From positions 1 through 36,678 of IMG/VR virus record IMGVR_UViG_3300045988_058288: a stretch of DNA of 36,678 bases. One strand, written 5' to 3'. The notes beneath the pieces were generated by a model that worked only from the letters and a program-made list of their open reading frames with translations, searched no databases and had not been told where the DNA came from. The DNA is from a virus. Below, piece after piece: positions 3,376-29,197 of this stretch. The first letter of the stretch is position 1, and every line of letters starts with the position of its first letter. A program made the translations under genes and the position numbers.

Positions 3376-3641
3376 TAATTCTCGTCTAGATACGTTTCTT
3401 TTTCACTGTTTTTTCTTGGTGGTAGGATTGCGCTATACTTTTCTACTTCATCATACTTGTTCTTAATCCTTTTAATAATTCTATTAACACTAGAAACACT
3501 CATATTCAATTTATCGGCTTGTTATCTAACTGTCCATCCGTATATTCTTGTTCTTAGAATCATTTCTTCATCTTTAGTTAATAAAGCTAGATTAATAAAC
3601 TCTTCTAAAATAATCTTATTCCAAGGTACTTGATTCGTCAT
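3375..3641 (-). pseudogene. Sigma-70 region-4-like HTH regulator interrupted by an in-frame TAA
   Basis: The frame from ATG 3639-3641 reads MTNQVPWNKIILEEFINLALLTKDEEMILRTRIYGWTVR, then TAA (3522-3524), then QADKLNMSVSSVNRIIKRIKNKYDEVEKY... up to TAA 3375-3377. The stop falls in the middle of the region-4-type helix-turn-helix. Confidence 0.5.
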
Positions 3642-4116
3642 TGTCTTCGTTAACGATTTTATCCGCTACTTCCAAACCTTTAGTTAATACACTAGGCACG
3701 CTATATCCACATTGTACAAGATTCTCAATAATGCTACGCACTTCATTAATACATAAAGAAGCCAATACAAACCAACCTAATAATGTGGTTACATGGAAAT
3801 CAATCCCTAGCATTTTTCCAATCTCAACCAAGAATGCACTGAATGTGAACGCAACTACAATCATAATCCAATAGCCTAGCTTTTTAAGGACTCCAATCCA
3901 TCCTTTATTGCTATTGATTTTGTGATTAATCGCCGACTTCATACATCCTGTTATATAATCTACTACATTCATAAATAAGAAGAATGCAAATAAATACCAA
4001 TGTTCACCTAATACGTATGTTAATACGGCAACGGCTACACCACCAATTGCATTCATCTTGTCTAGAAAATACATACTTCTTGTTATTTGTTTAAATCCTC
4101 CATTTTTCTTTTCTAT
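3616..4116 (-). CDS. Holin (phage_holin_4_1 / TcdE-like family); proposed ATA start
   Basis: Multi-TM protein (AIGGVAVAVLTYVLGEHWYLFAFFLFMNVVDYITG...GYWIMIVVAF...) in the lysis position. The track's GTG (4123-4125) lies inside the Shine-Dalgarno AAGGAG (4125-4130). The ATA at 4114-4116 is 8 nt downstream of that SD. Confidence 0.7.
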   Translation of the reverse strand: MEKKNGGFKQITRSMYFLDKMNAIGGVAVAVLTYVLGEHWYLFAFFLFMNVVDYITGCMKSAINHKINSNKGWIGVLKKLGYWIMIVVAFTFSAFLVEIGKMLGIDFHVTTLLGWFVLASLCINEVRSIIENLVQCGYSVPSVLTKGLEVADKIVNEDNDESSTLE

Positions 4117-5143: not shown

Positions 5144-6013
5144 CTATAAACCTAAATACCTTTCATTGTAATAAACCGTACAAGCTAGGTTCGTATCTCC
5201 ATTGTCTGCCGTATATCCTATGATATTTTCACCTAACTGAATCGTCATATCATTGAATGATGATGTTCTATCAACTTTTCCGATACAATTCACACCATTC
5301 TTTTTAATCGAAATAGGTTCTGAAACTAAATCAATTTCTAACACATCACCATTGTGTAGTGTATCTAATACACGAATATATTTATCTTTATTGAATAGTT
5401 TCGGATTTGTTACCTCTCCAAATGCTTCAATAACGGCTCTACAGTATGTTTCTGTATCACCTTGATTATCAATATAGATTTCTCTAGCGAATGTAAATGT
5501 TCCAAAGTTTACGCCTGTTTCCGGTATTTCAAAATTGAACGCTAAACCTTCACCAATTTCTGCGATATTCCTTGCGAAATCATCAAATGAAAGCAATAAA
5601 GGTTGTGTACATAGAATTGTAAAGTTAAACTCTAAATCTTTGTAAATGTTAACAGTAGGCAAGCTATACGCATATAAACGACCTCTGCAATATTTCTTTT
5701 CTCCCATGTACTCAACTATCACATCAAATACATGAGAATATTGGAAGAAGCGCCGTAGCTTCTCCCTTTCTTCTCTTTTTTCTTCTAGTGAACCTTTAAA
5801 GGTAGCTTTCACGCTTCTTTCTTTCGTTGGAATACGTGAACCGATTAATCTAGCACCATTTCCGAATGCATTGTCTTGAGTTGTGTATGAAGGTGCTACA
5901 TAATCAAATCCATCTAATCCGTCACTAGATGGTATTCTCCATCTTTTGTTGTCGATTTCAAATTCTTTGCCATCATCCCTACGGACAATAACTCTTACTT
6001 TATTGATATCTAT
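5144..6013 (-). CDS. Distal tail protein (phage tail family, Dit-like); proposed ATA start
   Basis: The track starts at GTG 5812, but the frame is open up to 6058. The upstream part encodes DINKVRVIVRRDDGKEFEIDNKRWRIPSSDGLDGFDYVAPSYTTQDNAFGNGARLIGSRIPTKERS. GGAGGTG (6021-6027), a 7-nt spacer and ATA (6011-6013) give the start. The ATA overlaps the TMP stop as ATAG. Confidence 0.7.
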   Translation of the reverse strand: MDINKVRVIVRRDDGKEFEIDNKRWRIPSSDGLDGFDYVAPSYTTQDNAFGNGARLIGSRIPTKERSVKATFKGSLEEKREEREKLRRFFQYSHVFDVIVEYMGEKKYCRGRLYAYSLPTVNIYKDLEFNFTILCTQPLLLSFDDFARNIAEIGEGLAFNFEIPETGVNFGTFTFAREIYIDNQGDTETYCRAVIEAFGEVTNPKLFNKDKYIRVLDTLHNGDVLEIDLVSEPISIKKNGVNCIGKVDRTSSFNDMTIQLGENIIGYTADNGDTNLACTVYYNERYLGL

Positions 6014-8589
6014 TGAACAACACCTCCATATCCATATCTTGCTTGCATTCGCAACATTCTAGCGATTTCATCCGGACTTTGAGCTTTATTGTAGAAGTTG
6101 ATGGTCTGCCCATTGTTATTTGTCGTTACACTTGGCATAATTTGAGCCATATCTTTAGCTACGGCACGAATCCATGCTTTATTTTTTTCTAAAGGTACGA
6201 CTGCTTCTGCCCCATTACCTTCTAATAAACCGATTTGGCCACGCTTCAATACACCACCACGCTCTAGCCTAGGGATTCTTCCAATGTGAACTCCGGGAAT
6301 CTTGTTGATGATACTTATTGCACCGTTAATGCCACCGATAACACCATTTACCATTCCTTTTACACTAGAGACTAATGAACCTACTGCTCCTTCAATTCCA
6401 CCGAATACACCACCTACAAACCCTTTTAAACCGCTCCATGCATTCTGTATTCCTTGTAGAACATTTGAAATTTTATTTCCTACATTGTCCATTACGCCTT
6501 GAACTTTAGACCAAATACCATTGAATACATCAGAAACCGTAGATTTGATATTATTGAAATATTTATTGATATTATCAATAACACCTTTAACTTTGTCTCC
6601 AACTCTGTTCATTGTATCTTGAATCTTACTCCAAATATTGTTTATGATGTCCGAAACTATCTTAAATAAATTGCTTACGAATCCAATAATCGCAGTAACT
6701 ACTTCGCTAACTTTGCTCCAAATATTCTGAGCAACCGTTAATATTACAGACCAAATATTCGCTACAATTGTAGCTACAATTTGAACAATAGGCATGATAA
6801 AGCCTAGTATTGTTGCAATTGCAGTTCCGACATACGTCACAACCATAGTTATAAATGAAATGATTCCACTTACCACACTTCCAACTACTTGAAGAATAGA
6901 TGTTATTACAGGAATCATACCGATAACTGTTTGAATAATCTTCTTAATGATTGCTAGAATCGGTGGTCCTACAACGCTAAGAATCTTTTGAGCTTGGTTA
7001 ACAACATTTTGAATTGCGTTACCAATTTTACCTAAGATTTCTTTTGCGATAGGTTCAAGCGCAACTTTCATTTCATCAATAGCTTTTCTAACTTCATCAA
7101 ACGCAGGAGCTAACACTTCGGAAACTTGATTTGTTAATTCTGTAATTCCACTTGTATCAATCTTACTTAATACGCTTGAAATTACATCACCAACTTTAGC
7201 AAATCCTTGTTGAATGCCTTGAATTGCTACTGTAATTAATCCTACAATGCCTGCAAGAATAGGGGTAATAAGTTCGCCTATTGGAGTAAATGAATCAAGA
7301 AATGCGCGTCCTAAGCCACTTAAAGCGTTCTTTAAGCCACCATTTGCGATATCTTTAACTTTATCCATTGCCCCTTCTACGTCTTTATATTTATTCCCTA
7401 CTGTCGTTAAGGACTGAATGAATCCGGCGTTGAAATCTTCTCCCATTGTGCCGAAAGCCGTTGCAGATTTATTCAACTTTTCTTGTTCATTTGTAGTCTT
7501 TGAAATATCTTCTACAATCGCATTCACAACATCTTTTTGAGTTGCTCTTCCTTCTTGCCATGCCTTAAATACATCTTGTGTTTTGGTATCAAAACTATCT
7601 AAAGCTCCTTCAATAGTTCCATCAACTAACCTTGTGGTAACTTCGTTGATTGCGTCATTAACTTTATCAAGGTTATAAGCTCCACCATCTAATCCATTCT
7701 GCATTAATTGGAAATATTCATCTGCCGAATATCCTGCTTGTGCAAATTTACCGGAGTATTCTGAAATGTTGTCGCCTAACTCATCTGATTTGTTTAAACC
7801 ATTCTGAGCACCTGTAGCCATAAGGTCGAAAGCTTCTTGAGAAGTGATTCCGAATTGCTTCATTAATTGTTGAGCACCTCTAAGAGTTTCATTCTCATCC
7901 ATATCGAATGTATCTCTTAAAGTTAATAAATCCTCGGTCACGTTCTTTAGGTCAACATCACTTATGCCTTGCATTTGTTGCTTGACTCTGCCCATCATAT
8001 CGGCAACATCTGAAACATCTTCACCGAAATTGTTTGACCAAACATCACGAGCAATGTTTTTAAATTTGCTCATTTCATTGCTTGAAGCACCTGTTTGAGC
8101 TTGAAATTTAGCCATAGCGTCATCTAATTCAGTAGCTTGATTTACACCTGTCTTAATTGCTAATTCCATTCCACCGATAGCTCCTGCTACGGCAGTAACA
8201 CCAACAACACCTCCTGCGCCTAATCCTGTTAGGGTTTCAGTGATTGCAGTAGCTTCCGGACTAATATTCTGAATCTTTCCTAATAGTCCATCAAATCCAC
8301 CTTGAATTGATTCTAAGGCACTGTTTCCTACTTGTTTAAATACATCAAATTTAGAACCTGTTTCTTGCGTTTCTGTTTGTGTATTCTTTTGCTCTTCGTT
8401 TAAATCTTTAAGTTTATCTTTAATCTTTGGTGGTGCTTTTGAACCATCAGAACCTAGCTTGTCGATTGCTTTTGAAGTTTCTTTGATAGCATTTGTAGCT
8501 CCACTTGTGACTTCATGAACGGATTTCAGTCCATTCTCTAGACCACTTGTATCAATCTTTGTATCAAACTTTAATGTTCCGTCTGATAT
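6010..8589 (-). CDS. Tail tape measure protein; proposed ATA start
   Basis: The track starts at ATG 8169. A further 140 in-frame codons upstream read ISDGTLKFDTKIDTSGLENGLKSVHEVTSGATNAIKE..., a typical TMP N-terminus. An in-frame TGA sits immediately before ATA 8587-8589. GGAGGTGG (8598-8605) lies 8 nt upstream of that ATA. Confidence 0.8.
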   Translation of the reverse strand: MSDGTLKFDTKIDTSGLENGLKSVHEVTSGATNAIKETSKAIDKLGSDGSKAPPKIKDKLKDLNEEQKNTQTETQETGSKFDVFKQVGNSALESIQGGFDGLLGKIQNISPEATAITETLTGLGAGGVVGVTAVAGAIGGMELAIKTGVNQATELDDAMAKFQAQTGASSNEMSKFKNIARDVWSNNFGEDVSDVADMMGRVKQQMQGISDVDLKNVTEDLLTLRDTFDMDENETLRGAQQLMKQFGITSQEAFDLMATGAQNGLNKSDELGDNISEYSGKFAQAGYSADEYFQLMQNGLDGGAYNLDKVNDAINEVTTRLVDGTIEGALDSFDTKTQDVFKAWQEGRATQKDVVNAIVEDISKTTNEQEKLNKSATAFGTMGEDFNAGFIQSLTTVGNKYKDVEGAMDKVKDIANGGLKNALSGLGRAFLDSFTPIGELITPILAGIVGLITVAIQGIQQGFAKVGDVISSVLSKIDTSGITELTNQVSEVLAPAFDEVRKAIDEMKVALEPIAKEILGKIGNAIQNVVNQAQKILSVVGPPILAIIKKIIQTVIGMIPVITSILQVVGSVVSGIISFITMVVTYVGTAIATILGFIMPIVQIVATIVANIWSVILTVAQNIWSKVSEVVTAIIGFVSNLFKIVSDIINNIWSKIQDTMNRVGDKVKGVIDNINKYFNNIKSTVSDVFNGIWSKVQGVMDNVGNKISNVLQGIQNAWSGLKGFVGGVFGGIEGAVGSLVSSVKGMVNGVIGGINGAISIINKIPGVHIGRIPRLERGGVLKRGQIGLLEGNGAEAVVPLEKNKAWIRAVAKDMAQIMPSVTTNNNGQTINFYNKAQSPDEIARMLRMQARYGYGGVVQ

Positions 8590-9550: not shown

Positions 9551-10057
9551 TTATACTTCTGATGTGCCTTCTGTAAATGTTACTGCTCCATCTGCTACCC
9601 TTGCAGTACCGACACGAATGTCGCTTGCAAAGTTAATGTTGAAGTTGATTTTTGAATCAACACCACTTAATGTGTCGAAAATTAATTTAGCGTCAACTTC
9701 CCACGCTTTATAGCCTTTAGTTTTGTCTCCGTCAAACATAAATACAAGTAAAGCTTTTGTATTTACTTCTTCGTTGTTTGGTACGGATTTCATCATTTGT
9801 TCGTAAATGTATTCAAAATCATCTTCACCTTTAATCATTGTTAAATCTTGCGAAATCTGAGGTGAATAACTCTTTAATGATTCTGTTGGGTTCTTATCTG
9901 CGATAAAGTCATACGTTTCAGTTTCACTATTGAATGAAATATCTAAAGTTGTAGACTTTTTAATTCGCTTGTAACCTTCTCCCATTTGTAAGAACAATCC
10001 AATCATATACTTCTTGACTGTCTGTCCTGTAGTTACTTCAGTTCCTTGAGTTGCTAT
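9551..10057 (-). CDS. Major tail protein; proposed ATA start
   Basis: The track ATG at 10006 has no Shine-Dalgarno. The frame is open from a TAA two codons before ATA 10055-10057. AAGGAG (10066-10071) lies 8 nt upstream. This adds MATQGTEVTTGQTVKKY to the N-terminus. Confidence 0.65.
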   Translation of the reverse strand: MATQGTEVTTGQTVKKYMIGLFLQMGEGYKRIKKSTTLDISFNSETETYDFIADKNPTESLKSYSPQISQDLTMIKGEDDFEYIYEQMMKSVPNNEEVNTKALLVFMFDGDKTKGYKAWEVDAKLIFDTLSGVDSKINFNINFASDIRVGTARVADGAVTFTEGTSEV

Positions 10058-10476
10058 TAATTAAGCTCCTTTCTGTATTTAATTTGAATAGTCAATGCAT
10101 ATACTGCTTGATTATCCTCATTTGTGTATAGATATAAACCACTTGAAACGGAAACATCATCACAATGTCTGTTTCCGTCTAGTTGTGGTAATTCTCCGCT
10201 TAAATTCTTTTCATCAATCCAATTTTCTAATTCTTCTAGAAAAACATTATTGTCTTGTCTTTCTGATTCAATCTGTGTATTCCTACGAGTTAGAAACGTG
10301 TAGTATTCTGTACACATTTGAGAGCCATCAATGTATGTATCTACAATTGCATTAGGTTCTTTGTACAATGCATAAGAGATAGCTTGTTGCGCTAGAACAT
10401 CCGTTTCAATACGTTCATCTATCTGTATATTTCCATAGCAATATAGCCATTGAATCAACGCTTTTGATACTGTCAT
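10057..10476 (-). CDS. Head-tail joining / tail terminator-like protein (assigned by position)
   Basis: 139 aa with GGAGGTAGTGA-ATG and an ATGA overlap onto the upstream stop. Confidence 0.5.
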   Translation of the reverse strand: MTVSKALIQWLYCYGNIQIDERIETDVLAQQAISYALYKEPNAIVDTYIDGSQMCTEYYTFLTRRNTQIESERQDNNVFLEELENWIDEKNLSGELPQLDGNRHCDDVSVSSGLYLYTNEDNQAVYALTIQIKYRKELN

Positions 10477-10835
10477 TCACTACCTCCTATCATCTGTTGT
10501 GCTTTCTTTAAGATTGTTTCTGCTCCACCATTTCGCATAGCTTTTTTAAACCAATGGTCTGTTTTACCTCCAACGAAATGAGCATTCTCTTTGTTGTAAT
10601 ACCAACGCCGAGCATATGGAGCACTTGGTCCACCTTGCTTTACTAATCCACTACCGATTTGTGTTAATCGTGTAGCCGAGTTAATCAATGCTCCTGTGTC
10701 TCTAGGCGTATAGGGTGTCATAAGCCTAATGACTTCGGAATCAATCATTTGTTGAACTCGTCCACGTTCTTCAAGTCCTCTTGATTGTTTAATTTGGGGA
10801 ATTGATTCAACATCAAGTTTGACTTTTATTCCTAT
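10473..10835 (-). CDS. HK97 gp10-family head-tail protein; probable ATA start
   Basis: The track's TTG (10853) lies inside the GGGAGG motif (10847-10852). ATA 10833-10835 overlaps the upstream stop as ATAG and lies 11 nt after the SD. The start assignment is less certain than for the other ATA genes. Confidence 0.55.
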   Translation of the reverse strand: MGIKVKLDVESIPQIKQSRGLEERGRVQQMIDSEVIRLMTPYTPRDTGALINSATRLTQIGSGLVKQGGPSAPYARRWYYNKENAHFVGGKTDHWFKKAMRNGGAETILKKAQQMIGGSE

Positions 10836-11615: not shown

Positions 11616-11756
11616 CTATTTTTTCTTTTTATCTTGAGGTTTAGCTTCCTCTTTTTCTTCTGTGGGTTCTTCTTCGTCATTTGAAAGTTTCACATATGCG
11701 TAAGGTTCAACCTTTTTATCGATAGAAGGATAACCCCATCCGATTTCCACTGCCAT
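11616..11756 (-). CDS. Small hypothetical ORF (46 aa) after the capsid gene
   Basis: Encodes MAVEIGWGYPSIDKKVEPYAYVKLSNDEEEPTEEKEEAKPQDKKKK. TAATG overlap with the MCP stop. It contains a 38-bp copy of sequence from the 10832-11251 gene. Confidence 0.3.
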   Translation of the reverse strand: MAVEIGWGYPSIDKKVEPYAYVKLSNDEEEPTEEKEEAKPQDKKKK

Positions 11757-12625
11757 TACTTCGCACTAGCAGATAAGTAAATACCTGCTACCTTATTTTG
11801 GTATACATCGACGATTCCATATTTACGATATTTTAGTACATCTGAATCTGATTCAATGTTATTGCTTGCCGGAATTACATTTGAAACGGTGTGTTTATCC
11901 CATTTCATAACGGCAGGTTTGTGAACAATCAAGAAGTTGATTACGTGTCCATCCTCCGCTTTTTCGTATCCGCCCTCTAACTCTGTGTCTTTTCCACTCA
12001 ACAATTTGATTTTTGTGTAAAAACGACTAGCGGGTACAGGAACAACCTTTGCAAATCCTTGTAAAGCTTCACGAGATTTGTAAGTGTCCAACGCCTTAAC
12101 GCTATTTAATAATGTTGGTGTTGAATACAAGATACGTTGTTCGCTAGGAACTTCATCCTCATCCATTTTAGTGATAGCCGTTAATAATGCGCTCAAGAAC
12201 TCTTCTGCACCTGTATAATCTTCTGAAACCTTTGTGATTCCTGTTGTTCCGGCAATTTTGGCGAATGTGTAAGCGTCTGCTTCCGGTGCTACCTTTGTTC
12301 GCATTAATTCTGCTCCTGCCATGCCAAATGCAATGTTCATTGATTCTGCGTTATCTTGTGTATCGACTGAGATTTTAGTACCTCGGTCATAGTCGAATGT
12401 AGCAGTTTTCCATTCTAACTTAACTGAGTTACCTGTATAACCACTGTTTCTATCGTAGTTTCCTAAACCTTTAACAGATATTTGTGGATAGATGATTTCT
12501 TTTGCATTTGCTCCTGCTCGTACCATTGTAGCGTCTGCATTTAAATCACCTGTAACTGAAGCTAACTTATATACCTCATCCAAATTTGAGACATACGTTT
12601 TAGCTAATGCAATTTCATTTGGTAT
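11756..12625 (-). CDS. Major capsid protein; proposed ATA start
   Basis: The track starts at TTG 12583. The frame opens at a TAA two codons before ATA 12623-12625. AGGAGGA (12634-12640) lies 8 nt upstream. This adds MPNEIALAKTYVSN ahead of LDEVYKLASVTGDL, a typical MCP N-terminus. Confidence 0.75.
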   Translation of the reverse strand: MPNEIALAKTYVSNLDEVYKLASVTGDLNADATMVRAGANAKEIIYPQISVKGLGNYDRNSGYTGNSVKLEWKTATFDYDRGTKISVDTQDNAESMNIAFGMAGAELMRTKVAPEADAYTFAKIAGTTGITKVSEDYTGAEEFLSALLTAITKMDEDEVPSEQRILYSTPTLLNSVKALDTYKSREALQGFAKVVPVPASRFYTKIKLLSGKDTELEGGYEKAEDGHVINFLIVHKPAVMKWDKHTVSNVIPASNNIESDSDVLKYRKYGIVDVYQNKVAGIYLSASAK

Positions 12626-16282: not shown

Positions 16283-16891
16283 CTAACCCCACATTGTGTT
16301 TAAATCGTTTGTTGTAATCGCCGTTAATTCTGATTTCTTAACATACGCAGATAAATCAATGTCTGTATTACCAATCTTTTCATATGTCTTTGTCTCTGAA
16401 AGCCAAATATACTCATCATAGATATCTTGTGTTCCATGTGAATGTGCTAACAGATAAATTACACCATTTGAACCTGTAGCAGGTAAGCTCGTTACCTTTT
16501 CATATCTAATAGATGTAATATTACCGACTGCCGAATTAATCAACGATTGTACTTGTGATTGCGTTTGATACCCTTTAGCCGTGATAATTGACTCAACGCT
16601 CGTCGCCGACTGATATCCACTGTCATTTGTTAATTGTGATGTCTTTGTAGGCACTGTAACATCCACGGCTTTTGAGTTTGGCGTTAATTTCGTACCATTT
16701 ACCTTTACAGACTCAATCACATTCACTTGAGCACCACTTGCGATACCACTTAATTTTTGCTTTTCTGCGCTAGTATAGTCATTTGTCGATAAGCCTTTAC
16801 CACTTACGACATCAACTTTCCCACCTAACGCCGATTTAATTTTGCTAATCAAGAGCGTCAATCCACTCTTATCTAAATATTCAATAGCTAT
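16283..16891 (-). CDS. Fibre protein; proposed ATA start
   Basis: The track starts at TTG 16861. ATA 16889-16891 lies 7 nt after GGAGG (16899-16903). This adds MAIEYLDKSG ahead of LTLLISKIKSALGGKVD, a fibre-type N-terminus. The protein contains a LSTNDYTSAEKQKL motif. Confidence 0.6.
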   Translation of the reverse strand: MAIEYLDKSGLTLLISKIKSALGGKVDVVSGKGLSTNDYTSAEKQKLSGIASGAQVNVIESVKVNGTKLTPNSKAVDVTVPTKTSQLTNDSGYQSATSVESIITAKGYQTQSQVQSLINSAVGNITSIRYEKVTSLPATGSNGVIYLLAHSHGTQDIYDEYIWLSETKTYEKIGNTDIDLSAYVKKSELTAITTNDLNTMWG

Positions 16892-17232: not shown

Positions 17233-17528
17233 GTAATCACTTCCTTATTCAATACTCTATATACCTTTGTTGTTTTGATAGGAGAAGCAATAGCAACTCC
17301 TCCTTTTGTAATCATTCTTAATTGAATATTACAAGTACCCTCTTTGAAATTGAGCGTTTCTTCTTGGCTTAACAACACTGAAATAGTATTCCCTTCAACG
17401 TCTAAATCACTTGATTCTTTTTTCAAGATATATCCGTTCTGTTCAAATACCACATAGATATTCTGCATTTCATTTAAATCAATATCGTTTATTGTTATTT
17501 GAATTGTTGGCGTAGTTCCTTGTCTCAT
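17229..17528 (-). CDS. Hypothetical structural-module protein
   Basis: The start is probably ATG 17526-17528, which forms an ATGA overlap with the upstream stop, rather than the track's TTG at 17549. Confidence 0.5.
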   Translation of the reverse strand: MRQGTTPTIQITINDIDLNEMQNIYVVFEQNGYILKKESSDLDVEGNTISVLLSQEETLNFKEGTCNIQLRMITKGGVAIASPIKTTKVYRVLNKEVIT

Positions 17529-18334
17529 GATTTCACCTTGTAAGTCCAATCTTTGCCTACTTCACCTTTATCAACTTCATACGCCCAATCTGCTAGAATC
17601 TCATGACCATTCTCATCTACTAGTGTTCCATCTTCTGTTAATAGAATTGTAGTGAAATGGTTCTCCATAATCATCTTTTCAATATTTGAAATTCTGTTCG
17701 ATAGCTTCCCTGCCGTATTTGCGTCTAACGTATCTTTTACAGTTTCAAACCAATCATTGAATTCTGTTCTATTTGCATTCATTTCAGATTCATTCTGAGC
17801 CTTAATTTCTTTGAATAGCTCAGTTACTTGAGTAAATAAATCCAACGATTGTACGCTTTTAATAGCGCTTGTAACTGCTCCACAACGTGTAAAATCTAAT
17901 CTTGTATCAGTAATATCTGAGCCTTTAACTTCGCTTGCATTGCCTGTTACTGTTACCGTAGCTAATACTAAATCGTAAATAGAATCACTTCTTGTGATTC
18001 CATCATTGATATCACTTGCTACTAAGGTAATGTTTCTGTATGCGTCATTATCATTCAGTCTAAGAATAATATTGTAGCTTTTAGTTGCGCTATTCTTTTC
18101 TAGTGTGATGGTTTCGTCATCTTTCTGCCAATAGAACGCTCCGTTAATATTTGCTCTTCCTGCCTTAACTGTAAGTGTTAAGCCTTGAGCTTTCTCAACC
18201 CTTAAATGGTCTGAACTAGAATCATCTACGAACACGCCATTCGTAAAATAGCTTGAGAACAATCTTCTGAAAGCGTCATATAATACTAATCTATCGCCAT
18301 TTCTTGAGACGAATGGAAAATATGTAGTTGCTAT
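17525..18334 (-). CDS. Fibre / structural protein; proposed ATA start
   Basis: The track starts at TTG 18262. The frame opens at a TGA two codons before ATA 18332-18334, and that ATA overlaps the portal stop as ATAG. This adds MATTYFPFVSRNGDRLVLYDAFRR. GAGGGGGA lies 9 nt upstream. Confidence 0.6.
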   Translation of the reverse strand: MATTYFPFVSRNGDRLVLYDAFRRLFSSYFTNGVFVDDSSSDHLRVEKAQGLTLTVKAGRANINGAFYWQKDDETITLEKNSATKSYNIILRLNDNDAYRNITLVASDINDGITRSDSIYDLVLATVTVTGNASEVKGSDITDTRLDFTRCGAVTSAIKSVQSLDLFTQVTELFKEIKAQNESEMNANRTEFNDWFETVKDTLDANTAGKLSNRISNIEKMIMENHFTTILLTEDGTLVDENGHEILADWAYEVDKGEVGKDWTYKVKS

Positions 18335-19734
18335 TCTTCGTCATCCCCCTCTCCATCATCTTGAATTTCTTCATTCAACAATTCCGTTGCTTCTTCTTCT
18401 GTGAATCCGTATTGTTTCATTAAATACATAATCTTTAATCTTGGAATATCAAATGTAAGTGCGTCATTTCTTAACGCTTGTGCCGTGCTTTGCTTATCCT
18501 CAATGTATGTATCGTCATAATCAATAGCAATGTCTAATGAATTGATATTAAGCTTTCTGCCTTGTGTTAATTCATAGAAGTATGCTATTGCTTGAATGAT
18601 ATCTTGAATATATGCAGTAGATTCTTTACGTTGTGAATTTACTTCTTTCATTGCGTCTTGATTTTCGCCGATATATTCTGTAGCCGTTACGATTCTTCCA
18701 CTTTCAAACGTGTATTTCTTCGTGCCAAATCCAAACATCATTGATAATATGCTCAATGCCGTTTCTAGTGATTGTACAACTTCTTGTGTTCTAACTGTTG
18801 GATTGTATTCCTGCCATAAAGCTTTTTCTTCCGGAAGCTTATCTCTACCTAACTGAACGAAAATCTTTTTCATTTGTGGATTCATCTTAATCTTTCCATT
18901 CTCGTCTTTCTGCATTAATGCTTCATTCACAAGAACGATTTTATCTGATTTCAACAAATCACGATTCCACATTGTCATTGTTAAATCGATTGTTTTCAAT
19001 GGAGCAATTGCGCTCCAAATCTTCGGCAAGCCGTAACCTTGCATTTGTAAGTTGTTTACCTTTGCGTTTCTCATAATTGCAAACGGTTTTACAACATCTA
19101 GTTGAACAATCTGAGCACGGTCTTTTATTTCTTCGCCTGTTTCTTTAAAGTAATGTGTTTCTGCAATATATCTTTCGTCTTGCCCTTTTAGGAACATGAC
19201 CATCACATATACTTTTTTTAGTTTCTCATAATTTACTCCAACGAAAGCCACTTCCACAATTTCATCGTTAATAACAGTTAATGGTAGGATATTCATTGAA
19301 TCACAATAGTTGATTCTGATTTCTCCCCCACTAAAACTACCATCTTCATAAATCTCGGCATTCGATACCGTCACATAAGCTCCTACTGTGCCGTTTGCAG
19401 ACATTTGCTCAACTTGCTTCCTATACATAACATCAAATCTATTCTTTGTTAGAATGTCTGAAATAATGTCATTTGTTGTACTGTCCTCAGTTGCGTTTAT
19501 ATCTAGGATTTCAATGAGGTTCGCGTCATCCTCGCATAGACGCTTTGCAAAGTCTGTTTTATCAAGCGTGTATTCCTCATTGTTCAAGGTGTATGCCGTA
19601 TGAAATTCTGTTTCGGTATTCGTATACCACTTATTACACAATTCAATAATTTCAATTGCGTTTGTATCTACATAATACCCTCTTTCGTTTAGGTAATTCT
19701 GAAACCACGGTCTACGTGTGTTAGATGTTTCTAT
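18331..19734 (-). CDS. Portal protein (SPP1 gp6-like); proposed ATA start
   Basis: The track starts at TTG 19641. The frame opens one codon before ATA 19732-19734. AGGAGG (19741-19746, minus-strand reading) lies 6 nt upstream. This adds METSNTRRPWFQNYLNERGYYVDTNAIEIIE. Confidence 0.75.
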   Translation of the reverse strand: METSNTRRPWFQNYLNERGYYVDTNAIEIIELCNKWYTNTETEFHTAYTLNNEEYTLDKTDFAKRLCEDDANLIEILDINATEDSTTNDIISDILTKNRFDVMYRKQVEQMSANGTVGAYVTVSNAEIYEDGSFSGGEIRINYCDSMNILPLTVINDEIVEVAFVGVNYEKLKKVYVMVMFLKGQDERYIAETHYFKETGEEIKDRAQIVQLDVVKPFAIMRNAKVNNLQMQGYGLPKIWSAIAPLKTIDLTMTMWNRDLLKSDKIVLVNEALMQKDENGKIKMNPQMKKIFVQLGRDKLPEEKALWQEYNPTVRTQEVVQSLETALSILSMMFGFGTKKYTFESGRIVTATEYIGENQDAMKEVNSQRKESTAYIQDIIQAIAYFYELTQGRKLNINSLDIAIDYDDTYIEDKQSTAQALRNDALTFDIPRLKIMYLMKQYGFTEEEATELLNEEIQDDGEGDDEE

Positions 19735-19737
19735 TTC

Positions 19738-21072
19738 TTACCTCCTTAAATCTATATATCCACTATGGGTTATAAATGTATAGCAGAACGAATCCCAATC
19801 ATCATTGATATTGTTTACGTTCTCATCTTTTGGAATGTCTTTCTTTTCATCCCATACTAATTCGCTCAATGCGTTTATTAAGTTCTTACAGTGTTCTTCT
19901 ATCTTTAACCTACCTGTTACAAGTAAGCTATCAACCGTTATAGGACGGTCTGTAAGCTCATTCTTCTTAACCGGTGCAATTATACTACCATCTAATCCTT
20001 CGGCGTAAAAATAAGCTCTAAGCGTGTTTATCAACGTATTAGAAGCACTGTCCGGAAATATCCATTCTACATATCCGTAACATTCAATACAACGCTTATA
20101 GAACCTTACAAACGCTTTGCAGAACTTTGTTGCGTCTATTGCATTTGACTTTGCCATATCTCCCTCATCGAGCGCCCACACACAATCCCAATCATTTGTG
20201 AATCCTGTTAAGTGCCATGAGTACTTTGAACCATTGTCTCCAAAGTCAACGCCTATGATTAAATGACTAAACCTTTTTCCTTGTTCTTTCATCTTCTCTT
20301 TTAAATGTTGATACTTGAATAAATAAGGTTTGCAGTTATTAGCAAAATAAGGGAACACAAGTCCTTCGGCTTCTTCCCTTTGCCCTTTTATATCTCTTTT
20401 GTAATAAACGCTATTCTTATCGTATGATTTCAAGACCGTTCTTATCTGCTCATCACTCAAAGAATAATTATCAACTAAGGTGGTATGCCCATAGTTGTAG
20501 CCATATGTAGAATCTTTATTCTGTTGCTCCTCATGATATCTCAAGAAATCTGTGTAATACCAATGATTCTTGCCTTTGGGGTTTAAATCATGAAATATCT
20601 TTCGATTGCTTGAAGCTATCGTTCTATCCATCACTTCTTGTAGAAACTCAATGCAACAAAGATTTGCTTCTGTTACATATGCCATTCCATATGAATAACC
20701 ATGTATCGCATTCTCTGAGCCTTTCTTAGCGCCACCGGCAAAGAATACAACCTTTTCTCCTACCTTTGTATTGATGTAATAACAATCCTTGCCTTCATAC
20801 TTCCCTACCTTGAACCTATTCGCAAAGTAGTTTTGTAAGCCGTATCCGTTACAATCTCCAATATTCACACGTGCAGATGATGTATCTGTTCCTGCTATCA
20901 AATGGAATTTATCCGGATGTGTTTCTAAAGCGATACAGAAAGCGTATGTGTTGAGTACGTTCTTTCCTCCACGTTTACCACCTTCTAAAACATTAAGCCA
21001 TGAATCAAATGTTTTTTTAAGATAAGTTAATTGTTTTTGATTGAATGGTGCAGGCTTATTCAAAGTCTTCAA
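19738..21072 (-). CDS. terL: Terminase large subunit
   Basis: 444 aa with a Walker-A-like GGKRGGKN and C-terminal nuclease-type acidic motifs. TTG start, coupled to terS by a 17-nt overlap. Confidence 0.85.
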   Translation of the reverse strand: MKTLNKPAPFNQKQLTYLKKTFDSWLNVLEGGKRGGKNVLNTYAFCIALETHPDKFHLIAGTDTSSARVNIGDCNGYGLQNYFANRFKVGKYEGKDCYYINTKVGEKVVFFAGGAKKGSENAIHGYSYGMAYVTEANLCCIEFLQEVMDRTIASSNRKIFHDLNPKGKNHWYYTDFLRYHEEQQNKDSTYGYNYGHTTLVDNYSLSDEQIRTVLKSYDKNSVYYKRDIKGQREEAEGLVFPYFANNCKPYLFKYQHLKEKMKEQGKRFSHLIIGVDFGDNGSKYSWHLTGFTNDWDCVWALDEGDMAKSNAIDATKFCKAFVRFYKRCIECYGYVEWIFPDSASNTLINTLRAYFYAEGLDGSIIAPVKKNELTDRPITVDSLLVTGRLKIEEHCKNLINALSELVWDEKKDIPKDENVNNINDDWDSFCYTFITHSGYIDLRR

Positions 21073-21442
21073 TTCTTCTTTCTTTTGCTACATCTGTAAT
21101 CATAGCTTTATTAATTGCATTTACTTCTGAAGCGTCAAAATGTGTTTCTACCTTATCTGCTTGACCTAGGAATTGTTTTCCTAAGAAAATAGCCATTGCA
21201 GGACTCTTTGAAGCAAGTTTAAATTGCGCTCTTCGTAACGAAATTCTTCCTTGTGCGCCGAACCTTTTTAAACATTCGGAGAAATCAGTTCCATATGTAC
21301 GTTTACACCAATTTGATAATGTCTTATCTGTCGTGTTAAAAAAGTAGCATACTTCTGCTTGTGTGCATTGAATAGCTAACAATTTTTCAAATTCTTCTTT
21401 GTCGAAATCCTTGTTAGGCCTTCCAACTTTTCCATTCGCTAT
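21056..21442 (-). CDS. terS: Terminase small subunit (HTH); proposed ATA start
   Basis: The track starts at TTG 21382. The upstream frame reads TAG AAA GGG GAT GTA ATA ATA GCG..., which adds MANGKVGRPNKDFDKEEFEKL. The start is ATA at 21440-21442 or 21443-21445, after the AAAGGGGA motif. Confidence 0.7.
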   Translation of the reverse strand: MANGKVGRPNKDFDKEEFEKLLAIQCTQAEVCYFFNTTDKTLSNWCKRTYGTDFSECLKRFGAQGRISLRRAQFKLASKSPAMAIFLGKQFLGQADKVETHFDASEVNAINKAMITDVAKERRIEDFE

Positions 21443-21499
21443 TATTACATCCCCTTTCTATATTTATCACTCAATATTTTTGGTGTACAATGTTCCAAA

Positions 21500-21778
21500 T
21501 CAACTTTGTGGTGCATTCTTTTCGTAATGTGCGATGTCATCAATCTTTAATCTAATAGTTTCTGCTTTATCACCCTTGTATTCATCAACGTATAATTCAT
21601 TTTTATCGCCGTTATACGTTACTTCATAATAATCATCCGTGCTCATAGCACTAATCAATGCTTTATTGTTTTGAAGTACTTTAACCATCCATACAACAAA
21701 CATTTCACTGATTGCAATATTTGGGTTTACTCGAAATACTGCATTCATTGCTAATTCTTGAAATTCTTTTGAACCCAT
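21500..21778 (-). CDS. Hypothetical protein (first late ORF)
   Basis: 92 aa with AAGGAGGAGAAT-ATG. Confidence 0.55.
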   Translation of the reverse strand: MGSKEFQELAMNAVFRVNPNIAISEMFVVWMVKVLQNNKALISAMSTDDYYEVTYNGDKNELYVDEYKGDKAETIRLKIDDIAHYEKNAPQS

Positions 21779-21796: not shown

Positions 21797-21821
21797 AAAA
21801 GAACCGAGACAAATGCTCGGT
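21797..21821 (-). terminator. Hairpin plus T-tract between the tRNA and the late ORFs (terminator or attenuator)
   Basis: The minus strand reads ACCGAG-CATTTGT-CTCGGT followed by TCTTTT. It ends about 18 nt before the ATG at 21778. Confidence 0.5.
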
Positions 21822-21903
21822 AATATATCAAAGCCTAATTGTATGCCATTGTTGGTATTTAATATCTAATTTGGGAAGGACTTACTGATAGGCTTTGTAA
21901 ACA

Positions 21904-21979
21904 TGGTTGCAGGAGAAGGAATTGCACTCTTCGACCTCTAGCTAATAAGACTAGTGAGCTACTACTGCTCTATCCTGCT
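21904..21979 (-). tRNA. tRNA with UAU anticodon and initiator-like identity elements
   Basis: The reverse complement reads AGCAGGA TA GAGC AGTAGTA GCTC A CTAGT CTTATTA GCTAG AGGTC GAAGA GTGCAAT TCCTTC TCCTGCA A CCA, 76 nt in total. It folds as a cloverleaf with these elements: an A1xA72 mismatch, G2:C71, C3:G70 and U8. The D stem is GAGC/GCTC (A11:U24). The 7-nt anticodon loop is C-U-UAU-U-A and the variable loop is AGGTC. Discriminator A73 and the CCA end are encoded. The T arm is imperfect, with a bulged C and a loop that is not TTC-type. Confidence 0.75.
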
Positions 21980-21985
21980 AAAACA

Positions 21986-21994
21986 ATTATCGCA
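21986..21994 (-). promoter_or_regulatory. Putative extended -10 promoter (TGCGATAAT) directly upstream of the tRNA
   Basis: The minus strand reads TTTTTTCATGCGATAAT-TGTTTT-A. The 6-nt gap places the predicted transcription start at tRNA position 1 (21979). Confidence 0.4.
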
Positions 21995-21996
21995 TG

Positions 21997-22018
21997 AAAA
22001 AATGCTCACATTGTGAGC
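21997..22018 (-). terminator. Rho-independent terminator overlapping the stop codon of the 22006-22332 gene
   Basis: The minus strand reads GCTCAC-AAT-GTGAGC followed by ATTTTTT. Confidence 0.55.
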
Positions 22019-22332
22019 ACTTTCTTTAAGTTTTTATTTATTTTTCTTGGGATTTCTTCTCTTGCATAACCTACAATATTAGATGTTTTTTCTGCACTGA
22101 ATCCCTTTATATATCTATACTCAATCATTGTCCTAGTAGTATCGTCAAGTTGGCTTAATTTGTCTTTTACATAGTTCATTCTTCTTGCATAATCTGCATG
22201 AGCCAAGAATAGCTCGGCTTTTAAAGGATAAATAGCTTCATCCCTTTGTAGCTCTGCTATCTTTTGCTCATAATATGTGTATGATTGGCATTCACACAAG
22301 AAGTGTCTCTTAATATCTTCATACGTGCTCAT
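22006..22332 (-). CDS. Putative late-gene transcriptional regulator (sigma region-4-like HTH; ArpU/RinA-type position)
   Basis: 108 aa. The C-terminal RTMIEYRYIKGFSAEKTSNIVGYAREEIPRKINKNLKK resembles region 4. It is the last early gene before the terminase module. Confidence 0.45.
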   Translation of the reverse strand: MSTYEDIKRHFLCECQSYTYYEQKIAELQRDEAIYPLKAELFLAHADYARRMNYVKDKLSQLDDTTRTMIEYRYIKGFSAEKTSNIVGYAREEIPRKINKNLKKVLTM

Positions 22333-22532
22333 GAACTGTATACCTTATACAATCTATCTTTTAATTCGCCAACTTCACTTCTTAATTTCTTGATTTCTTT
22401 AGCTTGAGTATGAATTGTTGTGTTTCTTTCTTTTATAGTCTGCTCCAATTCAATATTCTTCCTTCCTTGTCTATTGTTTTTAGAAATTAACTCTTTAATC
22501 CTTTCTTCATAATTCATTTCTATTAATTTCAC
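22329..22532 (-). CDS. Hypothetical coiled-coil protein
   Basis: ORF track, 67 aa, overlaps its neighbour. Confidence 0.5.
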   Translation of the reverse strand: MKLIEMNYEERIKELISKNNRQGRKNIELEQTIKERNTTIHTQAKEIKKLRSEVGELKDRLYKVYSS

Positions 22533-28432: not shown

Positions 28433-29197
28433 CTATGCTCCAAATAGTTGTGCTCTAAGCCTGTTAAATTCATCTTGTACTTCTTTATCTGTTTTTGTGT
28501 TTTGCTCTGCATAAAACTTTGAATCAAGTGTGATAGGCTTATCTTTATTTCTTTTCATCCATTCATCATGAACCCATTTCTGAATCACTAGTGAATGATT
28601 CTTGTATTTCTTTCCACTCGTTTCAATGTACTCATCCAAAATCTTTATATGCTCATCTAATGAATCGCCATATAAATCTAATAGGTGTGTGTGTTCTTTA
28701 TCTGTTAATAGAACGTGTTGATATTCACCGTATTTGTGTTTGGGTGTATATATATCTTTTTTATTATTAAATTTATTATTAATAACTTTATTATTATCCT
28801 TAACATTTTCGTTTATAGGGGTATTAACATTTTTGTATACACCCTCTAAATCTTTTTGTATATACCTATTAACATTTTCGTTTATAGGGGTATTAACAAT
28901 ATACAAATGTCTTCCGATAATTTCTTTTGTTCCTTCTTTATATAGTGTTTCTACTGAAATATATCCTTTTCTATTAAGAGTGCTAATCCATCTACTTACT
29001 GTAATTTTAGAAACTTTATATAAATCTGCGAAATATTGATTTGTTGCCCAACAATATCCTTTTTCATTACATAACGAAGTTATTTCTCCGTATAACAGTT
29101 TTGCATTTGGTGGAAGTTCTTCATCGTATCGGACATTTGCAGGTATGATTGCAAAGTACGATTTTTTAGGTTCTGATATTCTAATCACCTCCACCAA
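28433..29197 (-). CDS. Replication initiator / replisome organizer (N-terminal wHTH, DnaD-like C-terminal region)
   Basis: N-terminus: YFAIIPANVRYDEELPPNAKLLYGEITSLC...ISRWISTLNRKGYI. C-terminus: KHKYGEYQHVLLTDKEHTHLLDLYG...GKKYKNHSLVIQKW. Confidence 0.6.
   Translation of the reverse strand: MVEVIRISEPKKSYFAIIPANVRYDEELPPNAKLLYGEITSLCNEKGYCWATNQYFADLYKVSKITVSRWISTLNRKGYISVETLYKEGTKEIIGRHLYIVNTPINENVNRYIQKDLEGVYKNVNTPINENVKDNNKVINNKFNNKKDIYTPKHKYGEYQHVLLTDKEHTHLLDLYGDSLDEHIKILDEYIETSGKKYKNHSLVIQKWVHDEWMKRNKDKPITLDSKFYAEQNTKTDKEVQDEFNRLRAQLFGA
28800..28898. repeat. Two perfect 30-bp direct repeats (candidate origin iterons) inside the initiator gene
   Basis: TTAACATTTTCGTTTATAGGGGTATTAACA occurs at 28800-28829 and 28869-28898. 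Each copy encodes NTPINENV in the protein. An AT-rich tract lies adjacent at 28750-28799. Confidence 0.6.

Follow-up and report, generated by a model that had tools for sequence, protein, structure and literature searches.

We describe here a tRNA gene in a virus genome, IMG/VR record IMGVR_UViG_3300045988_058288, that has the body of a bacterial initiator tRNA and the anticodon UAU, and that lies at the head of a late region in which many genes open with ATA behind a strong Shine-Dalgarno (SD) site. We consider it probable, from comparison of sequences, that this is a natural phage-encoded initiator tRNA that has been retargeted from AUG to AUA and initiates translation at those ATA starts. 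The stretch analysed, hereafter the window, is the whole record of 36,678 nucleotides (36.7 kb, 33% GC). Nearly all of its genes are on the minus strand, as are all features described below, and they follow the order of a temperate siphophage: integrase, lysogeny switch, replication, packaging, head, tail and lysis. Related loci are referred to by L numbers.

The tRNA gene occupies 76 nt at 21904-21979, with the anticodon at 21947-21945, U37 at 21944, A73 and a genome-encoded CCA at 21906-21904; its anticodon loop reads CUUAUUA. The Rfam model RF00005 matches 21979-21907 with 43.2 bits, the gathering score being 29 (E of 1.4e-7 for this region and 4.2e-6 for the whole window), and it was the only Rfam family detected in the window. 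Pattern scans recovered the tRNA from dozens of viral and metagenomic contigs, while a second viral scan keyed on U37 and GCAACCA gave no further loci. A search for related loci with the portal returned only relatives at 96-99% identity. The tRNA was present in 31/31 portal-anchored relatives that have enough upstream sequence, which came from many samples. In all, we obtained 11 distinct tRNA sequences from four lineages: the Holdemanella phage family to which the window belongs (several sub-variants), L047/L062, L069 (43% GC) and L035 (29% GC). Over these variants, pairing holds in 95.7% of the cells of the cloverleaf and compensatory double changes occur at eight pairs; neither value was reached in any of 500 shuffles. 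Compensatory changes are found in every stem except the D stem, which is invariant, and all stems pair at about 98-100%; sliding the cloverleaf out of register lowers pairing to 39-57%. These covariation data indicate that the tRNA gene is real and not a chance sequence. A shifted anticodon register was considered and rejected, as it would break the reading frame.

The tRNA elbow (21922-21935 and 21959-21965 in the window) was seen in two linked forms. In the majority form, to which the window belongs, a bulged T stem and the T loop UGCAAWU go with the D loop AGUAGUA; the second, in the sister phages L045 and L061, has the canonical D loop AGUGGUG with the T loop UUCAAWU. No form mixing the two types occurred among the variants seen.

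The identity elements of this tRNA are those of an initiator. Position 1:72 is an A1xA72 mismatch in the window and AxA, CxA or GxA in nine of the 11 variants, with U-A in the other two, and it is the only pair systematically unformed in the cloverleaf. Since different bases give the same non-pairing, it seems that selection acts on the mismatch itself. G2:C71, C3:G70, A11:U24, G30:C40 and A73 are invariant in 11/11 variants, and the D stem is GAGC/GCUC. The 1:72 mismatch together with 2:71 and 3:70 constitutes the formylase determinant of bacterial initiator tRNAs (PMC5389676), and A11:U24 is listed among initiator features (bioRxiv 10.64898/2025.12.21.695813). All of these elements, as well as the variable loop AGGUC and C32/A38, are shared with bacterial and phage-borne tRNAfMet. 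When the most canonical variant was searched with BLAST, all annotated full-length matches listed in GenBank phages were tRNA-Met and none was tRNA-Ile; three of the four unannotated gut-phage matches that were fetched turned out to be ordinary CAU initiator-type tRNAs. The phage tRNA departs from the initiator body in its anticodon (UAU instead of CAU, in all family members), in U37 for A37, in U31.G39 and, in the window, in A29:U41.

Elongator tRNAs normally have a Watson-Crick pair at 1:72, a pyrimidine at position 11 paired with a purine at 24, and a purine at position 37. The tRNA described here resembles an elongator tRNA-Ile(UAU), such as that of Mycoplasma mobile, in its anticodon, and differs from it in all three of these features and in sequence affinity.

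Thirteen genes of the window have ATA at the head of their open reading frame (ORF), a few bases behind a strong SD site. Start codons were assigned by calling one start per ORF, by a census of SD sites and by direct inspection of their contexts. The census of the coding strand gave 45 strong SD sites, 19 of them ahead of canonical starts; at 11/11 SD sites that lie at a gene junction without a canonical start, an in-frame ATA 4-11 nt downstream opens an ORF, and the remaining sites are intragenic. From the ATA to the next canonical start the distance is up to 67-140 codons, and those downstream starts lack SD sites and would delete conserved N-terminal positions of the protein family profiles. 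The ATA is kept in 6-75 relatives per site, and at 12 of the 13 sites both the ATA and the A before it are invariant despite variable flanks. In the late operon, ATA starts are thus both genuine and common. Public gene callers shorten the ATA-start genes in relatives (L051, L052, L053-L060), giving for example a small terminase of 46 aa, a portal of 436 aa and a tape measure of 719 aa. Genetic code 4 and other stop-codon reassignments were rejected, the ORFs being intact under table 11.

The late genes concerned span packaging, head, tail and lysis. The small terminase gene terS (21056-21445; phrog_606) opens with consecutive ATA codons at 21445 and 21442, and ATA is found in 15/15 relatives. 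The portal (18331-19734) starts with ATA behind AAGGAGGT, as it does in 64/64 relatives, and the homologous portals of L062 and L069 also have ATA. In the following head protein (17525-18334; phrog_1220), whose residues 3-224 align to profile positions 8-248, ATA is kept in 63/63 relatives. A 202-aa protein of the structural region (16283-16891; phrog_24103), aligned over residues 4-200 to profile positions 4-195, is more variable: among 30 relatives the site is ATA in 23 and ATG in six, with one shifted by an alignment gap, and this alternation argues that the codon there is the start. The major head protein (11756-12625; phrog_422, E 2e-65, residues 3-288 to profile positions 3-294) begins with ATA behind AAGGAGG, and ATA is present in 37/37 relatives. 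A minor head or connector-region protein (10473-10835) was assigned from PHROG and relatives. The probable major tail protein (9551-10057; 168 aa, phrog_3099), encoded just upstream of the tail chaperone genes, aligns over residues 10-167 to profile positions 4-169, and its next ATG, 17 codons in, cuts into the family core. The ATA of the tape measure gene (6010-8589; PhageMin_Tail, relatives) comes directly after an in-frame stop codon, and the next canonical start is 140 codons downstream. ATA starts were likewise assigned to the distal tail protein Dit (5144-6013; phrog_33, relatives), to the holin (3616-4116; phrog_199, relatives) and to the endolysin with a CHAP domain (245-1006; Pfam, relatives), the last behind AAGGAGG.

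The other two ATA-start genes are early. One, in the replication module (28433-29179), encodes an HTH_36 domain, and its next canonical start lies 91 codons downstream; the other is a small coiled-coil ORF just upstream of the regulator gene discussed below (22329-22523), with ATA behind AGGAGGT. The start of the latter is ambiguous, as an ATG follows two codons after the ATA; in 75 relatives A-ATA never changes there, whereas positions -2 to -6 do.

Two features of these junctions may be mentioned in their own right. At 18331-18334 and 10832-10835 the downstream ATA start overlaps the upstream TAG stop as 'ATAG', the ATA analogue of the ATGA of translational coupling. The holin has two ATA candidates, at 4116 and 4086, each with an SD-like site, and an in-frame ATG 14 codons in (about 4074), an arrangement that resembles holin/antiholin dual-start motifs.

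Several observations connect the tRNA with these starts. ATA opens 11/31 late genes (35%) and only 2/35 early genes (6%; Fisher p = 0.004), and none of 19 host genes flanking the prophage starts with ATA, ATG and GTG being the only starts there. Internal ATA codons follow a different distribution, amounting to 1.15% in late genes, 2.04% in early genes and 0.87% in host flank genes; because late genes have fewer internal ATA codons, compensation for codon usage fails to explain a tRNA at the head of the late region. The base before the start codon is also distinctive. A is found at -1 in 13/13 ATA starts (for example at 19735, 12626, 8590 and 1007) and in 25/53 canonical starts (p = 3e-4), as well as in 5/5 ATA starts of L062 and in the single one of L069, and A-ATA is invariant in relatives while -2 to -6 vary. 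G at +4 is enriched too (8/13 ATA starts, 12/53 canonical ones). Compensatory A37U and A37G mutants in E. coli have shown that position 37 of tRNAfMet pairs with the -1 base of the mRNA (PMC10018350). In the phage tRNA, position 37 is U in exactly those lineages that have ATA starts and A in L035, whose phage shows none. The loop bases 34-37, 5'-UAUU-3', would thus pair with A(-1)AUA through four A-U pairs instead of the usual three, and the correspondence between U37 and A(-1) suggests a specific and independent agreement between the tRNA and its start sites.

The distribution of the two traits among related phages points the same way. Three groups, the window family, L062/L047 and L069, combine the UAU tRNA with ATA starts. 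L062 has five ATA starts behind strong SD sites, among them those of a portal-sized ORF of 458 aa and of an ORF of 294 aa, and in L069 the gene concerned is the portal. In L112, whose portal is 44% identical, the portal starts with ATG and no tRNA was found within 3.1 kb upstream; the contrast between tRNA-less and tRNA-bearing phages hangs on this single distant record. When one genome per bacterial and archaeal species was scanned with a degenerate pattern, no low-GC copy of the tRNA appeared, and the scan returned a few high-GC UAU initiator-like tRNAs and chance matches.

We therefore favour a mechanism in which the phage tRNA would be charged with isoleucine or methionine, probably formylated, and placed in the ribosomal P site, where its bases 34-37 would pair with mRNA A(-1)AUA(+3). 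Efficient translation of the ATA-start genes would in that case require the phage tRNA. Isoleucine is one candidate for the attached amino acid, since that carried by engineered initiators tends to follow the anticodon (bioRxiv 10.64898/2025.12.21.695813), and methionine is the other; proteins made from ATA starts might begin with formyl-isoleucine instead of formyl-methionine.

A number of observations weigh against this mechanism and have to be set beside it. ARAGORN detects no tRNA in the window, a miss that can be put down to three traits of the window sub-variant in which it differs from tRNAfMet: the one-base bulge in the T stem, the T loop UGCAAUU with G at position 55, and the D loop AGUAGUA, which is without GG. 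The fold of the window tRNA is no more stable than that of shuffles (z = -0.32). The three consecutive G:C pairs of initiator anticodon stems are absent, one being left in the window (A29:U41, G30:C40, U31.G39) and two in relatives (G:C / G:C / U.G at 29:41, 30:40 and 31:39). Of these three pairs, G30:C40 is both sufficient and essential in E. coli, and natural exceptions exist (PMC5389676). The L035-type phage carries the tRNA, with U1-A72 and A37, and yet has ATG in all of its at least 14 visible late genes, and no convincing ATA starts were found near the high-GC UAU initiator-like tRNAs (L031-L034, bacterial; L036, L037/L046 and L044, viral). Two early genes use ATA, as does perhaps the L062 ORF at the position of the regulator, which speaks against a strict late-only switch. 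In vivo, the normal initiator uses AUA poorly, at about 7.5-15% of the AUG level; with an optimised initiation region in E. coli extracts, AUA mRNA reportedly performed like AUG mRNA (PMC5499595), so that the host initiator could contribute at the ATA starts. Finally, the relatives come for the most part from a single, closely related phage family and many of the counts given here are non-independent.

With regard to the two groups of loci just named, L035 and L113-L115 represent a related gut phage of 29% GC, and the L035 tRNA sits at the same genomic position as in the window. The unrelated high-GC UAU initiator-like tRNAs mostly have three G:C pairs and A37.

Could the tRNA be an ordinary elongator tRNA-Ile(UAU) that decodes internal AUA, while the host tRNAfMet reads the ATA starts at low efficiency, possibly as a way of lowering expression? 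ARAGORN does label the tRNA of close relatives tRNA-Ile(tat), phage early genes use AUA about twice as often as the host flank genes, where it is a rare codon, and the normal initiator can use AUA to the extents quoted above. However, this explanation, which we regard as improbable, has to account for a 1:72 position kept unpaired by three different bases, for the invariance of A11:U24, G2:C71 and C3:G70, for a body that matches tRNA-Met genes with no tRNA-Ile among the matches listed, and for a U where elongators are expected to have a purine at position 37. Nor does it sit well with the genes themselves: those downstream of the tRNA are poorer in internal ATA but 35% of them start with it, the A(-1) of all 13 ATA starts matches U37, and the strongest SD sites stand before ATA in the genes for the most abundant virion proteins, with the major head and probable major tail proteins starting at a codon that the normal initiator reads weakly in vivo. 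Another view, that a decaying pseudogene or chance tRNA-like sequence coincides with ATA starts that are mis-called or are sequencing or assembly errors, could appeal to the negative ARAGORN result and the irregular T arm and D loop, to the downstream starts chosen by public gene callers and to the ATG two codons into the ORF at 22523. We hold it to be very improbable in view of the eight base pairs with compensatory changes and the near-complete pairing of all stems, the presence of the tRNA in every evaluable relative and of identical ATA sites in independent assemblies, the conserved N-terminal positions that SD-less downstream starts would remove, and the 140 and 91 codons that separate the ATA of the tape measure and HTH_36 genes from any canonical start.

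A further possibility is that the tRNA serves as a back-up or escape initiator, replacing host tRNAfMet that has been cleaved or depleted by host defence or by phage shut-off. The changes in the anticodon loop and stem would then avoid a nuclease, U34 would still read AUG by wobble, and the ATA starts would have come about by tolerated, AT-biased drift. The L035-type phage, with its tRNA and ATG-only late genes, suggests that the trait may indeed have arisen for some other reason, for example as a back-up or nuclease-resistant initiator. It also fits that close relatives have either ATA or ATG at one of the start sites, that deviations from a canonical initiator are grouped in the anticodon arm (positions 31, 34, 37 and 39), and that phage tRNAs with anticodon-loop changes reportedly evade tRNA-targeting defences (PMC10264068). 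Against it, no nuclease or shut-off function was identified in our analysis, invariance of ATA and A(-1) at 12 of 13 sites amid variable flanks is unlike free drift, and the late bias and the U37/A(-1) match point to dedicated use. Taken as a full explanation it appears unlikely to us; what it addresses is the reason for having such a tRNA, and AUA starts could be read by the tRNA in that case too. We thus retain the retargeted initiator as the preferred interpretation.

The tRNA lies between the last gene ahead of the packaging module, encoding a putative regulator (22006-22332), and the packaging genes. A sequence-only reading of 21797-22332 had proposed here a cassette of regulator, promoter, initiator-like tRNA, attenuator and ATA-start operon, and all five sequence features that it listed are present at the coordinates given. 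The regulator ORF runs from 22332 to 22006 and does end in a terminator-like structure, conserved in relatives, formed by a hairpin (22019-22003; GCTCACA-ATG-TGAGC) that contains the regulator stop codon and by a TTTTTT run at 22002-21997. The predicted extended -10-like element, TGCGATAAT, is present at 21986-21994, and tRNA nucleotide 1 is the seventh base after its hexamer; it is kept as TGN(A/G)ATAAT in relatives with the same upstream region, has no -35 and was not flagged by the promoter scan. For the window family, tRNA nucleotide 1 is a plausible first base of the transcript. This is no general property, because in L062 the best -10 match sits 17 nt upstream of the tRNA. The initiator-like tRNA(UAU) was found as announced, and so was a second terminator-like hairpin, ACCGAGCATTTGTCTCGGT (21821-21803), with a TCTTTT tail to 21797; it is conserved in the family and lies about 80 nt past the tRNA and 18 nt ahead of the next ORF. 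The terminator scan flagged both hairpins, two terminator-like sites in 1.4 kb compared with 0.4 +/- 0.7 in shuffles, termination being predicted from sequence.

Two elements of that proposal have to be revised. The first ORF after the tRNA (21500-21778; DUF6275 by Pfam, 92 aa) starts with ATG behind AAGGAGG, so that the first ATA-start gene is terS at 21445. The region also looks like a small unit of its own, made up of terminator, extended -10-like element, tRNA, trailer of about 80 nt and terminator, and in that case the second hairpin is more simply the terminator of the tRNA unit than an attenuator. The earlier reading had left it undecided whether the tRNA heads the late transcript or forms its own unit, and the second of these options is the one favoured: not only in the window family but also in three further lineages, a small ORF with a C-terminus like region 4 precedes the tRNA and the packaging genes follow it, terminator-like hairpins flank the tRNA on one or both sides, and in L035 and L069 a hairpin and then a T-run come directly after it. 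The central idea, that a phage tRNA(UAU) is matched to ATA-start genes in the manner of the suppressor tRNAs of stop-recoded phages, is upheld by the initiator features and covariation of the tRNA and by the conservation and late enrichment of the ATA starts. The U37/A(-1) complementarity is an additional match that was absent from it.

The trailer may itself be structured. An arm CAAAGCCUA (21897-21889) can pair with UAGGCUUUG (21837-21829) in the minimum free energy fold of 21829-21897 (z = -2.1), and relatives show one compensatory pair in this nine-base stem, C-G to U-A with U.G and CxA intermediates, which is weak evidence. The stem could be an RNA structure or a protein-binding inverted repeat beside a candidate late promoter. 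The latter is TGaTATATT, a weak extended -10-like site at 21822-21830, directly adjoining the second hairpin and within a site of the promoter scan (21849-21822). We treat it only as a lead, since the promoter-like sites found here do not outnumber those in shuffles; were it the late promoter, transcripts would begin within the hairpin arm and so escape termination.

The regulator is a protein of 108 aa with an ATG start. Its likeness to sigma-70 region 4 is confined to the roughly 65 C-terminal residues and is weak by sequence: the match to Pfam Sigma70_r4 (E 0.0076, 16.2 bits) is under the gathering score of 24.1, and PHROG 36, 'transcriptional regulator', is matched with E 8e-4. The structural matches of an AlphaFold2 model (pLDDT 80) are in keeping with the likeness, the best Foldseek hits being solved sigma region-4 domains at an rmsd of about 2-2.5 A, with weak E-values (0.09-1) and with probabilities of up to 1.00 among short region-4 matches. 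The homologue search yielded no more than four close homologues in a database of 5.8 billion proteins, without any Pfam domain. In L069, L062 and L035, ORFs with a similar region-4-like C-terminus occupy the position of the regulator, with a significant BLASTP match in L069 only; the L062 ORF may start with ATA (reverse-strand position 2376). Firmicute siphophages encode late-gene activators of the RinA and ArpU types just upstream of terS. The regulator is like these in being a small gene with a sigma-region-4-like domain, by prediction only, directly ahead of the packaging module, and unlike them in that it has no significant sequence match to a curated family.

As to the host, exact-protein look-ups place the close relatives as prophages between rplQ and the cluster ecfA-ecfA-ecfT-truA-rplM-rpsI, and the S9 and TruA proteins that flank the relatives' prophages belong to Holdemanella (Erysipelotrichaceae, human gut). 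The 383-aa integrase and the 221-aa lysin had no exact database match in these look-ups, other gene models did, and the cassette found no match in GenBank phages by megablast. At least two different host integration sites occur among the prophage relatives, one in L053, L056 and L057 and another in L054, L055 and L058.

Initiation at AUA has a natural parallel in mitochondria, where it proceeds through a tRNAMet with the modified wobble base f5C34, and where AUA is also read internally as methionine, one tRNA serving both roles. The phage tRNA is comparable in that the change lies at position 34; it differs in that internal AUA is not unusual and the initiator is a separate one supplied by the virus. 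Anticodon mutants of initiator tRNA have reportedly been engineered by Chattapadhyay et al. in 1990 and by Mayer et al. in 2003. E. coli tRNAfMet carrying altered anticodons such as CUA, GAU, GAC or AAC initiates at the complementary non-AUG codon (bioRxiv 10.64898/2025.12.21.695813), and initiation by altered-anticodon initiators at matching non-AUG codons is also reported in PMC11744186. Unlike these laboratory constructs, the phage tRNA is natural, conserved and paired with recoded starts in the phage's own genes. A further counterpart is found in the stop-codon-recoded crAss-like and Lak phages, where a phage tRNA likewise reads a signal that the host reads otherwise and where that signal occurs above all in late, structural and lysis genes. 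Here too there is a matching phage tRNA and a late-gene enrichment, whereas the recoded signal is a start codon and not an in-frame stop read by a suppressor tRNA, the tRNA would act as an initiator in the P site, and no interplay with release factors is needed. In the literature that we searched, neither a natural AUA-reading initiator tRNA nor a phage with ATA starts has been described.

It is tempting to go one step further and to see in the tRNA and its start sites an orthogonal initiation system, in which a four-base A|AUA signal marks the starts of packaging, capsid, tail and lysis genes so that virions and lysis would be produced only with the phage tRNA, as a translational lock or timer laid over transcriptional control. 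We advance this tentatively and would give it rather less than an even chance. The late bias of ATA starts would fit a tRNA that is absent while the first early genes must be made, and such simple absence during early translation explains the bias equally well as a timer or licensing step. The arrangement may accordingly be either an adaptive timer or safety lock on the structural and lysis genes or a tolerated by-product.

In summary, our results point to a phage family of the human gut in which a dedicated tRNA would start many of the late proteins at ATA. Standard tools name this tRNA 'tRNA-Ile' or miss it, and about one third of the family's late proteins are shortened in public databases. 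If confirmed, this would be, so far as the literature searched shows, the first natural dedicated non-AUG initiator tRNA and the first case of viral start-codon recoding. It would mean that, in nature, one small RNA is enough to change which codon serves as the start, and synthetic biology would gain an orthogonal initiator already tuned in a Firmicute, including the quadruplet contact between position 37 and the mRNA -1 base. For the temperate phages themselves, it would constitute a new layer in how they keep their lethal late genes silent.

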